NCBI GenBank assembly: GCA_046563655.1
Contig: CM102289.1
Coordinates: forward strand, 2,294,001-2,358,000
Length of the DNA: 64,000 nucleotides
Direction: 5' to 3'
Source: Yuukianura sp. NJ FZ-2021
Lineage: Eukaryota
A program made the translations under genes and the position numbers. Below the pieces are notes generated by a model. It saw nothing but the letters and a program-made list of their open reading frames with translations. It was not told the DNA's origin and searched no databases. Shown here piece after piece: positions 45,673 through 57,365 of this stretch (positions within the stretch are counted from its first letter, which is position 1; every line of letters begins with the position of its first letter).

Positions 45673-46292
45673 ATGCCCTATTACACCCCGGAAGGCAAGA
45701 CTGTGTATTACGTAAGGGCCTAAATTTTAGTTTTGAGTTCTTTTTGACTAAACTTTCGTTATTCTTTTCGTAAATTAAAATTTTTATTTATTTTTTTCTG
45801 TAAAATTTTTTGTCCAGTATGGTGAGCCTGCTCTTGAAGCAATTACTGACCTAACCAGCCGATATCGACAGCCACAAGTGTTTGGCGACATTTTGAATTC
45901 TTGCCGTACTTATGGAACGGCATTTGTTGATCCGGAATTTCCACACGATGACTCTAGTGTGGGAGATATTGGAAAGTTATTTGACACGGCTAATCCACAA
46001 ATGGCGGCTTCGGTGGCTCAATGGAAGCAGGAGGGATGGACTGGGTCAGCTTCCTGGATTCGTGTTGCTGTAAGGCTTTAAAAAAATTAAACATAATACA
46101 GTAAATACCCCTCACAAACAAACCATTTCAAGGTTGGTTTAGCGACGAAAATTCAAAAAATACAAAAGTAACTTTAAGGCTTACTTGAGTTTTACACGTT
46201 TAGTTTTAATTTTAAGATTAAGTTTGACAGAGTTGTGTCAGAATTCAAGTTTGGGTTATTAAATAGCGAAAGCTATTTAATAATCTGATTCA

Positions 46293-46324
<32 letters not shown>

Positions 46325-55300: not shown

Positions 55301-57365
55301 GTCAAGCGGACGCGGACAAGTTACATTTAATTATGAATTATATTAATTGATTTAATTTGATATTACGTTTTTCTTTTAACAGGGCTACAAAATCCTGTTC
55401 CTTGATGTGCTATTTCCACTCTCTCTAAAGAAAATTGTTTTTGTGGATGCTGATCAAAGTGGAAAACCATTTATTGGCTTGAGCTATTTCGTTATGCGCG
55501 GTTTACAACCGGTTTATTATAAGTTAGTGTAACGTCGTAAAACTTTCAGGAGTATAATCAAAGCCGGTTTCCAAAATAGATGCTCCAGTGTATACATTGT
55601 TAAAACGGCACGCAAGATTGTAAAAGATTCTTTTTTTTGCTATTGTGTTCAGGATCTGTGCACACAGATTTACGGCCAAGCGTAATACGGCTTGCTTCAG
55701 TTGCGACAACATTGGAAATACAATTGCAAGAAATGACGTTCAACAGGGAAGTATTGGAGACTGTTGGTTTCTGTGTTCCGTTTCTGCCATTTCCATGGTA
55801 CCTACTCTGATTCAAAATGTGGTACCAACGGACAACAGTAACAACCCACAAGGAGTGTACCATTTTCGGTACCACTTTATTCTTATACCTTCTTTATAAA
55901 AAAAATTTATTATTTAATATAAATTATTTATTTAGATTCTGGTACCAAGGAGCGTGGGTTGACATTGTGGTAGACGACTACCTTCCTTGTATATCCACAA
56001 CGAGACAACTTTTTACCATTGGATCCAACTTTTATCCTAACAACGGAAAAGCCGAGTTTTGGCCAATGATGGTCGAAAAGGCTTATGCAAAGTAAAAAAA
56101 TAATGCAATCTCATAAGATAATTTGGGCCACTTAAGTAGTGGTTTCATTATTATATTCAATTTTTTGGGGAAAAATTACATCTTTATACTTTTGTACAAA
56201 CACTAAATTGTAGGTTAAATGGAGGGTATTCTCGCATTGCTTTCAACTTTATCGTGAATGCACTTGAAAATTTGACTGGAGGTTTTGGACAATTTATTCA
56301 AATTAATACTGGAGTCCCTGCAGACACTTTCCAGACGATGTTGACATGGTTTGATCGCGGAGCTGTTGTCGGTGCAGGAACGGCTGGACCCGGCGTAAGT
56401 ACGGTTGCAGTAAAACCTCTCTTTGCGCTACATTTTTTTGTTTTGTCTTGCACAGAGAGACGGAATTGTTGGAGGCCACGCTTATTCCATTACGGGTGTG
56501 CATGTTGTCACCAGGGATGATGGGTATGAACATAAGCTTGTGCGCCTGCGCAACCCTTGGGGCAGAACAGAGTGGAATGGAGCATGGAGCGATGACTCCC
56601 CGTACTGGCAACGTGTTAGCCAACAACAAAAAGAAGCAATTGGATTTATTCAAAAAAATGAAGGAGAGTTTTGGATGAGCTACGAAGATTTGCTGACACA
56701 CTATGCAGATATTGACGGCTGTTACTACTTTGGTCCCAGTGATTTAGTCTTCTACTCACGAATGTTTGCTCAGTTTAACTGTTCGTGGAGCATTGCTGCA
56801 AACACTGCTGGGGGATTTGGTAAGTTTTTAAACAGTACGGATAAATCATGGATCACGGTAAATTATGTTGGTTTTTGAAAAATTATTTAACTAGTGTCGC
56901 CTTGGAATAATCCAAAGTTTGAAGTCGAGATATTCACTTCAAAAGCAACTGGAGTCTTGGTTGTGGGAATACTGATGCTTATTAAGCTCAAAGAGGACCT
57001 TAAACACGGCAATTCTATTCGCCTTTTTCCGGTAAACATCGAAACCTTAATTCAAAATTTAAAAAGTAATTTTATTTTTAACAAAATTTTATTTCTAGGC
57101 TTCCGGAGCAACTGTCTACGATCAAAACTTTTTCTACAGTCATAAGGAAATCTTTCCCAGCGGAAAATCAAATGTTCCTGGAAACATGTTTAGAAGCTTT
57201 AACCTTGTGTACGATGTACCACCAGGAAAATACGTCGTTGTTCCATGCTCTTTGGAACCCAACATTGAGGCCAAATTTGTTGTTCGTATTTGTAACGAAG
57301 GTGTGTCACCTGCCACTCAAGTGACGACTGTGGCGTATTATGGCGGTTCACAAGCCTGGTACTGA
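45673..57365 (+). CDS. Calpain (CysPc plus C2-like domain III, no penta-EF seen) with ~9.6 kb intron; possible frameshift
   Basis: FVDPEFP (exon 2); catalytic [13 protein letters not shown] and [41 protein letters not shown]. Intron 46070-55652. Confidence 0.8.
46254..47043 (+). mobile_element. DINE-1/HINE-like (non-autonomous Helentron-like) element
   Basis: 5' hairpin TTATTAAATAGC-GAAA-GCTATTTAATAA, (TGTC)8 microsatellite, ATCTCAGAAACTAC block, central GC-rich tandem repeats, 3' CTATTT followed by stem-loop CGGTT-TAC-AACCG. Confidence 0.7.
46600..46995 (+). repeat. GC-rich tandem repeat (GGGGAACCCACNCCCT units) inside the element
   Basis: Repeated ggggaacccac(g/t)ccctc units with many G and C runs in an otherwise AT-rich window. 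Confidence 0.8.
47660..47745 (-). mobile_element. 5' head of a second DINE-1-like element (minus strand)
   Basis: Hairpin TAGTCTTCT...AGAAGACTA with inner GCATGTC-GTA-GACATGC, followed on the minus strand by GTCCGTCTGTC. Confidence 0.5.
49630..49705 (-). mobile_element. 5' head of another DINE-1-like element sharing TATTAAATAGC
   Basis: The minus strand reads TATTAAATAGC...TCTGTATGTCTGCCGTCCGGCTGTC, with the same subterminal motif as 46257. Confidence 0.45.
50122..53949 (+). CDS. Lipase (alpha/beta hydrolase)-NACHT-ankyrin NLR-like protein, 1275-aa uninterrupted ORF; 5' start uncertain
   Basis: LVIALPGT and TGHSLGG (50530); Walker A DEPGMGKS (52480), Walker B FFFDSFDE (52744), LLITT, winged-helix [12 protein letters not shown]; ankyrin [12 protein letters not shown]. 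No in-frame ATG between the stop at 50050 and the lipase domain. Confidence 0.85.
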   Translation: MSGFEPTSLKYSTETESENIFPNILELVRLVQIAYKSFEDPPITIKLSTEWERIHTASYDDGFRAAAFRSPQTRHLVIALPGTKTADGLKAFVKDLAIDIYGVGLSKEVSVLHSAILFTQEVLHLFGKSCISTTITGHSLGGYLAQICTLYAEYPNLLEDSNQKQLHKRISSLPTSIANVIGISPFHLHCVAIDPPGCAEIFTKILSYNDVKRHDEDGHERWRRKLESLDICVILADSNIVNTSKYHLQHIQLLSIVKNLNSKLLSSHAIQKIIESLNEESLQIEEVYETRFFRQHVRGDKEIFLKNWYVGRMDSCRINFLTKQEIHFLEKFLEINRCVHPDAIQYHSKFLAKNGDKIRQFCNKLENRRITCDILNRVWIEGKTLSFRNPVETKTNKSTPVSLFEVVSGLKIVFAEDPTILKEALLQGIFTNFGIQVVVNSISQQYLQKIPKIKEEVESRFAQPDQVYCLHVVAGNIPISLCMGYIAHGLQKIGNTKVMFSNSTTVIRWQAALKPENFFSELDTEVVVVEVDSELEGLDTLISEMREDAQTCGKLLILVTETLCPATCVSSDNCYEYGNSLSKSLVQALTWSDLNEESKDVLWNYKLNIYGSDVEVKNIFGGKMERFEKFQKEGKIWLELISYAYGGKALKIVQNKKPLQCYISRQFWNLHLDLNCLQSSPPNFLKDLNIFVSCTDDQGSDVITLISPSDKFRLTLLHNDATKVEFLNSLTAVNHSGSSSHWFRFVDKNFVWQASAVTSCSRLLKCGGEIGESGVFDLESDCLVFADEPGMGKSALLQQLCYDYNQNWRAISKVSYCWPVLVNLNDYEKALRNTQENWGSVDSINNFFLRHVMKFESELVGQLFQYNFKRLEIVFFFDSFDELSMIAQRNVAEMLKTLRFQESPSFKLLITTGVHACISLEETLMTSAYKCIPFNRSQQTEFLLNRWNLHLQNDHRFSDFCSQWEEHKNTLVTFVTAVLDNIVKVIRTEDPFIGSPLSLVFFEELQRSGFADFCKDLTYGVAKDYKNYLLQFESKLALYEEFVDKKIDTYILDKKGERPTVYFRREHPYYRDPYEIHAAAAMLSLKESTFHKNCEIDVKDLNDAEKEKVIATRMCGISFTMDGSRSYRFFHKVLAEYFAAKYLVDEMKVNKAAVIDFLKANYRTWNFFGIGYFLDSILFKQFCSIKWLDKLQIKPVGNLRKHLAAKDLECVDKLGRTLLHYAARYGISEDDILWMIRQNPKNVEIEDSLGETFSVNLRFAQTTKALYHLFLDAKI
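54596..54763. mobile_element. Foldback MITE, same family as 11597-12530
   Basis: 9-bp TSD ACCTCAACC; ends GGTTCCATG...CACCTGCTACG; ~45-bp inverted arms; TTAGG in the core. Confidence 0.85.
54985..55457 (+). pseudogene. UGGT: Captured fragment of UDP-glucose:glycoprotein glucosyltransferase (GT24 domain), with 2 introns and a frameshift
   Basis: Spliced [88 protein letters not shown]; 1-nt deletion at ~55161. Confidence 0.85.
55461..55518 (+). mobile_element. Second copy of the HINE-like 3' terminus
   Basis: CTATTTCGTTATGCGCGGTTTACAACCGGTTTATT is identical to 47010-47044; similarity extends ~25 bp upstream. Confidence 0.8.

Follow-up and report, generated by a model that had tools for sequence, protein, structure and literature searches.

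We investigated a 64,000-nt stretch of the genome of Yuukianura sp. NJ FZ-2021 (assembly GCA_046563655.1, contig CM102289.1, positions 2,294,001 to 2,358,000, forward strand), hereafter the window, in which one intron of a calpain gene is occupied by a 9.26-kb block (46253–55518). The block has the head of a non-autonomous Helentron of the HINE/DINE-1 type at its left edge and a spare copy of the tail of that element at its right edge; between the first tail and the second lies a cargo that includes a predicted NLR-like gene and a fragment of a UGGT gene. An empty form of the same intron exists in sequencing data. We consider it probable (roughly 60%) that the block is one composite non-autonomous Helentron, which rolling-circle machinery inserted or excised in one piece. 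The features are listed in Table 1.

Table 1. Features of the calpain intron and its flanking exons (positions in the window)
Feature	Position	Strand	Remarks
Upstream calpain exon	45779..46069	+	FVDPEFP motif; donor at 46045 (in frame) or 46070
Whole presence/absence block (probable composite HINE)	46253..55518	+	Joint contigs of X1, X2 and X4
Complete non-autonomous Helentron (HINE/DINE-1 type)	46254..47044	+	Left module, tandem repeats, right module 1
Head palindrome	46256..46283	+	5′ subterminal inverted repeat (46261–46273) and nearby complementary inverted repeat
(CTGT)8 microsatellite	46293..46324	+	Equivalent to (TGTC)8; GTCY-type unit
GC-rich central tandem repeats	46681..46964	+	Periods 21/44 and 45
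Right module 1 (internal, putatively bypassed)	46987..47044	+	3′ subterminal repeat 47003–47015; hairpin 47025–47037
Cargo, left part	47045..49130	.	Patchwork of other repeats, then low-copy DNA upstream of the NLR-like gene
NLR-like gene	49131..53949	+	Predicted: exon 1 49131–49171, intron 49172–50105, exon 2 50106–53949
UGGT (Glyco_transf_24) genomic fragment	54985..55458	+	Three partial exons, two introns, a frameshift; both ends cut inside exons
Right module 2 (terminal, solo)	55461..55518	+	3′ subterminal repeat 55477–55489; hairpin 55499–55511
Calpain exon with catalytic Cys (GDCWFL)	55653..55880	+	Peptidase_C2, profile positions 41–96

An empty allele of the calpain intron

Public contigs of four sequencing runs were aligned on positions 44000–58000 of the window. 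Three of the runs (X1, X2 and X4) represent one sample from one study, and the fourth (X5) belongs to another study and carries another organism label. Contigs in three of the four runs (X1, X2 and X4) contained a joint that leads from 46252 to 55515 with four other letters between, skipping 9262 bases. Its depth was 80.2 in X1 (with a side of 138 nt), 137.4 in X2, and 32.2 in X4, and the sides ranged from 36 to 138 nt across the three runs. A 6512-nt contig of X4 (record 16) spans the locus, matching 44000–46252 and 55618–57999 with 111 letters of its own between. The intron is approximately 0.35 kb long in this empty form and approximately 9.6 kb in the window; the initial annotation of the window, made from the sequence alone, had named such a short, empty calpain intron as a check of its proposal that the cargo was mobilized between Helentron ends. 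Because the joint contigs skip the whole block, the head and the second tail bound a single presence/absence unit.

At 46145, depth was divided between the window letter and the letter of the joint contig at approximately 93:80 in X1, 65:137 in X2, and 0:32 in X4, and X4 showed the flanks solely in the form of the joint contig, which took the full depth of 32.2 at 46145 and likewise at six other listed sites. The empty form is therefore another allele of this locus, present in the same sample and lacking exactly the block 46253–55518. The filled form is real in the sample as well, since interior contigs (records 3, 5, 6, 10, 11, and 13) matched the window with 0 other letters over 1–2 kb. These observations make it very improbable that a paralogous calpain locus or a contig mis-join lies behind the empty form, or that the long intron of the window is an assembly chimera. 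An artifact of this kind would suit the flanks of the empty form, which differ from the window by 0.75–4% (records 16 and 2), and the finding that none of the contigs listed bridges a filled junction; however, the joint recurs in three runs, no 31-nt repeat is common to both flanks, and neither the exclusive presence of the joint form in the X4 flanks nor the exact interior contigs would be expected from it.

The left edge of the block lies 0–9 nt 5′ of the 5′ subterminal repeat, and the right edge lies within 4 nt of the end of the right-module likeness (55518/47044). Both edges carry TATTA (TTATTA at 46256–46261 and 55514–55519), so the junctions are ambiguous within 46253–46262 and 55514–55519. 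The empty form reads ...AAGTTT, four letters, and then TATTATAAG..., with T-rich flanks; because of the shared TATTA, the exact cut is ambiguous within 46257–46262 and 55514–55519. The AAGTT found on either side persists in the empty form and is therefore no target-site duplication. We also considered that the block is ancestral and that the empty form arose by a plain deletion, microhomology- or palindrome-mediated and unrelated to transposition. The TTATTA at both edges, the strong palindrome of the head, and the lack of a visible donor copy in the contigs agree with such a deletion, but both break points fall within 5 nt of independently predicted HINE module ends (where the likeness of the right modules ceases and where the 5′ subterminal repeat begins), a coincidence that we estimate, without formal computation, at about one in a million for random break points approximately 9 kb apart. 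A plain deletion is thus improbable, and transposition is the likely cause of the presence/absence block. Insertion of the unit and excision of an older resident fit the data alike.

Two stretches of the surrounding intron and flank also differed between haplotypes. The approximately 100 nt immediately right of the block (55519–55617) were far more diverged than the remaining flanks (0.75–4%), which could reflect old haplotypes or junction repair. Separately, 264 bases at 44935–45198 were absent from the 6.5-kb contig of the empty haplotype, and X1 and X2 showed a separate joint there (44978 to 45171); this segment contains 14–16-nt tandem repeats, a 23-nt inverted repeat (45000–45022/45122–45144), and a TAACC run, and is probably a small repeat-derived or miniature inverted-repeat transposable element-like insertion.

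Helentron-type ends and a single 5′ terminus

According to two reports on oyster Cg_HINE (PMC7492417) and on DINE-1 and mite HINEs (PMC4067079), the left flank of a HINE consists of a subterminal repeat, a nearby inverted repeat, and a GTCY microsatellite, the center of a variable stretch with a tandem-repeat array, and the right flank of approximately 60 bp consists of a 3′ subterminal repeat followed by a palindrome. Tests for this class further specify subterminal repeats of approximately 11–15 nt, a complementary inverted repeat 1–22 nt downstream, and T-T insertion without target duplication. At 46254–47044 we found subterminal repeats at both ends, a complementary inverted repeat near the 5′ end, a microsatellite with tandem repeats, and many related copies. 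The head, already described as DINE-1/HINE-like in the initial annotation, is a palindrome that occurs once in the window and folds (46255–46284) into a 13-bp stem with a 4-nt loop (z = −6.6; 0 of 200 shuffled sequences folded as well). Matches to the head repeat numbered 27 in the 64 kb, which is the chance level; 4 of the 27 had two or fewer mismatches, and three of those four were the subterminal-repeat sites of the block.

The identical 35-bp terminus that had been reported at both tails was confirmed: the two copies (47010–47044 and 55484–55518) differ at 0 positions, and a search of the 64 kb allowing up to three mismatches returned 2 matches, whereas 0 were expected from 100 shuffles. 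The likeness is in fact longer than first seen, extending over the 58 nt of the two right modules at 90% identity. Because this length corresponds to the published HINE right flank, the second tail is a whole right module on its own. It is also the better complement of the 5′ repeat, as had been proposed, although by one base: counted by eye, the head repeat agrees with the reverse complement of the 3′ subterminal repeat of module 2 at 11 of 13 positions and with that of module 1 at 10 of 13. The 5-bp hairpin CGGTT-TAC-AACCG, annotated together with a subterminal CTATTT, was found in both tails, 8 nt before the module end.

Family contigs of 85–99% likeness piled up on 46335–47268 in the sequencing runs, which indicates that the HINE family is abundant, with many dispersed copies. 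The summed depth in the bin 46335–46801, which is not a copy count, reached 33,868 in X1 and 61,711 in X2, compared with 125–250 in unique flanks; several joints and loose ends at the HINE stem from other copies. No second HINE copy was found in the 64-kb window. In many invertebrates, HINE/DINE-1 elements rank among the commonest repeats, and they have turned up at the borders of new gene duplicates. At 47007, in the subterminal repeat of the first tail, the window carries A, in contrast to the G of nearly all family contigs; as a speculation, this substitution might have weakened termination at right module 1. In metagenome scans, a 22-mer of the tail was found at 0 loci, and a 22-mer of the head at two loci that had only the 23-nt palindrome in common and were dismissed as chance matches. 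Rfam and tRNA searches of the window returned 0 matches and 0 genes, respectively.

No head-type subterminal repeat was present on the + strand of 47045–55460 at up to three mismatches, and the cargo with the second tail therefore lacks a 5′ end of its own. Read in one orientation, the block thus runs from a 5′ end through an internal 3′ end and the cargo to a terminal 3′ end, and an empty site for it exists. The single head and the absence of the block as a whole favor a composite element over two independent insertions. Two or more events, in which the HINE at 46254–47044 landed beside an earlier insertion of 47045–55518 or in which cargo and tail were added later at the HINE 3′ end, are an unlikely but more serious alternative than those discussed above. 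Helitron-type elements are described as clustering and forming tandem insertions (PMC4067079, PMC7492417); moreover, right module 1 is complete, its last 35 nt are identical to those of right module 2, and the region after it (47100–47280) is itself repeated, all of which would fit sequential events. On the other hand, 47045–55518 has no 5′ end of its own and begins (TCTTCCCAAAC...) without any HINE feature, and the empty form lacks both pieces at once; none of the joints listed represents an intermediate allele.

Under the composite reading, Helentron Rep/helicase supplied in trans would start at the single 5′ end, run past right module 1, and terminate at right module 2 (bypass), and the whole unit would enter, or later leave, a T-rich site 134 nt upstream of the calpain exon. 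Formation of the unit by bypass of the first tail is what this arrangement of modules suggests.

Several observations weigh against this reading. Contig depth is a rough guide only, but by this measure the exact interior contigs stand at approximately the depth of one haplotype (38–90 in X1 and 46–51 in X2, compared with 125–253 in the flanks), and interior bins of X4 stand at approximately 1–5 compared with 32, except for patches at 51005–51471 and 54274–55207. The interior accordingly looks single-copy and hemizygous, and no second copy or donor of it was seen in the runs by the same rough measure. With TATTA at both edges, neither the exact T-T cut nor a lack of target duplication can be read precisely, and an identical junction would result from a microhomology deletion. 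The right edge is placed on a weak alignment (record 2), in which 142 nt contain 16 other letters and 10 gaps, and the 5′ terminus of the family is undefined from other copies. The 3′ hairpin alone folds no better than shuffles (12 of 200 and 49 of 200 folded as well), and the one point in its favor is its identity in both copies. Finally, X1, X2, and X4 are not independent and are perhaps the source of the window itself; in X5, 7% of the sampled words were found, with thin, patchy cover of the interior and no joint seen, and no conclusion is drawn from this run.

The proposal of the initial annotation that the cargo was mobilized as a composite, dispersing immune genes, is therefore upheld in one part, namely a single Helentron-bounded unit with an empty form, and not in the other, since the single-haplotype depth and the lack of a visible second copy or donor do not indicate dispersal. 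As a broader and more tentative hypothesis, which we hold to be possible but somewhat short of even odds, an active Helentron system in this invertebrate may transduce whole working genes: here a HINE would have gone past its own tail and taken a complete lipase-NACHT-ankyrin (NLR-like) gene into a calpain intron, giving rise to a segregating presence/absence polymorphism of an immune gene.

The cargo

The reading frame at 50053–53949 is open over 1298 codons, with a chance of approximately 1e-42 from base composition, and does not begin with an ATG. A 41-nt exon (49131–49171; ATG .. GTAAGT donor) would join it in frame at a good acceptor (50105/50106) to give 1294 aa, and the splice 49171/50106 is predicted on this basis. 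In Pfam, the protein scored below threshold for NACHT (21.9 bits, cut-off 26.7) and Lipase_3 (17.4, cut-off 22); by eye, it contains GHSLGG in a lipase-like N-terminus, a Walker A motif GMGKS, and FFFDSFDE, and weak C-terminal ankyrin matches were obtained at residues 1209–1258 in a search of PDB sequences (E 0.15–0.2). Word-index protein searches, both near-length and shorter, returned nothing at E ≤0.001, whereas a full HMMER search of 1.8 billion representatives identified 184 relatives at E ≤0.001, the best of them 32% identical and thus, like the rest, too distant to inform on recent paralogues. When 10 of the 184 were examined with Pfam, six reached the NACHT cut-off and five of these also that of Lipase_3; clear ankyrin arrays occur in relatives P0003, P0005, and P0006. 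On these matches, the label "NLR-like" appears fair in the broad STAND sense of a lipase-like effector domain, NACHT, and ankyrin, as far as sequence similarity can tell.

Within this open reading frame, the contigs listed for 51568–52117 were approximately 3% off the window (16–19 letters; records 4 and 12), whereas neighboring interior contigs were identical; they could stem from a paralogue or another filled haplotype, or mark a local haplotype difference or a patch of gene conversion.

The 474-bp UGGT fragment, which is pseudogenized, gave Glyco_transf_24 matches in Pfam at E 1.3e-9, 1.9e-13, and 0.002, covering profile positions 28–53, 47–85, and 82–106 in different frames, and it stops three bases before right module 2. 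In X5, one contig (record 24) matches exactly 54985–55458 at approximately 96% and is unlike the window beyond both edges, and a contig of X4 (record 21) begins to match at 54985 at approximately 97% and stops at 55269, where it ends. Since record 24 at both edges and record 21 at the left diverge from the window outside the fragment, we regard the piece, from these sequence comparisons, as captured from a parent gene located elsewhere. Its severance from the flanks of the parent on both sides (record 24) suggests a mosaic cargo that arose from at least two acquisitions.

The left part of the cargo, at approximately 47100–48300, is a patchwork of other repeats at very high depth and includes an inverted repeat (48001–48040/48253–48292). 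No Rep/helicase was found in the interior, where 16 open reading frames of ≥55 aa outside the NLR-like frame were scanned with Pfam and yielded UGGT hits only; nor was a Rep/helicase partner found in the 64-kb window in Pfam scans of 61 and 16 open reading frames plus three references, including the NLR-like frame. A second inverted repeat in the cargo (54601–54758), with 50-nt arms that are 94% complementary and a 58-nt spacer, was present at approximately single-copy depth in X4, where the block is absent, and a copy of it therefore exists elsewhere.

The host gene and neighboring loci

The calpain acceptor at approximately 55653 lies 134 nt downstream of the block. An Atlas search with a calpain exon returned calpain clusters alone, drawn from mixed taxa. 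The upstream exon (approximately 45779–46044/46069) had no Pfam hit, and its FVDPEFP, recognized by eye, is what we take to be a calpain motif. On the opposite strand, rhodopsin-type G protein-coupled receptor exons flank the calpain gene (44278–44595, 58180–58674, and 59761–60171, all −); by their profile positions, they belong to two different genes. Elsewhere in the window, two open frames without a Pfam family (2404–4968 and 36918–39527, both −; 855 and 870 aa) share 23% identity over approximately 490 aa (E 1e-26 to 1e-28) and are therefore distant paralogues. A 544-aa open frame (28323–29954, +) contains a stonustoxin-type MACPF/CDC-like domain (E 1e-12) and DUF7656, and open frames at 5669–7343 (−) contain a wax-ester-synthase/DGAT catalytic domain (22.2 bits, just under the Pfam cut-off of 23.6) and the corresponding C-terminal domain, which passes. 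The wax-ester-synthase/DGAT family is unusual in animals.

Comparison with known systems

The element resembles HINEs such as Cg_HINE of the Pacific oyster, HINE-Mo of a mite, and Drosophila DINE-1 in its 5′ repeat with a complementary inverted repeat, GTCY microsatellite, central tandem repeats, right flank of approximately 60 bp with a 3′ subterminal repeat and then a candidate short palindrome, T-rich target, and many copies (PMC7492417, PMC4067079). Unlike ordinary HINEs, it is followed by a second, solo right module 8.4 kb downstream, with which it behaves as one 9.26-kb unit.

HelibatN539, a compound Helitron of vesper bats explained by an end-bypass model, likewise pairs a 5′ end and a 3′ end that come from two equally oriented elements and has captured the DNA between them (PMC4224331). 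It is a canonical Helitron (HLE1) that carries a gene fragment, its parental locus has been identified, and the element is fixed (PMC4224331), whereas the unit described here has Helentron-type ends (HLE2) and an apparently intact gene in its cargo, and is polymorphic. DINE-1-associated gene duplications in Drosophila also have HINE-type repeats at the break points of the duplicated genes (PMC4067079). For these the mechanism is only proposed in that paper, whereas here both ends and an empty site are visible, with no second copy of the cargo found. As in the histone fragments of Helentron-Cq-32A and in proto-Helentron-Pi, a diverged, frameshifted host-gene fragment lies inside the element and its parent elsewhere (PMC4067079); the UGGT piece is approximately 96–97% like other contigs, and, unlike those examples, it keeps introns, is fused directly to the right module, and travels with a whole gene.

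Gene capture and composite transposition in Helitrons, as well as fragment capture in Helentrons, are already known, and the composite route for HINEs and DINE-1-linked gene duplications is only a proposal in Thomas et al. (PMC4067079). The value of the present locus is that it is polymorphic and unites both ends, a bypassed end, an empty allele, and an immune-type gene that is apparently intact. In consequence, a STAND NTPase gene of immune type, nested in a calpain intron, varies between presence and absence, and the proposal of composite transposition of HINEs can now be tested in a population at one locus. If the composite reading is true, the locus would connect presence/absence variation of animal innate-immunity genes with rolling-circle transposons; if the broader hypothesis of an active, gene-transducing Helentron system holds as well, it would directly document the composite rolling-circle route that has been proposed for gene duplications linked to DINE-1.

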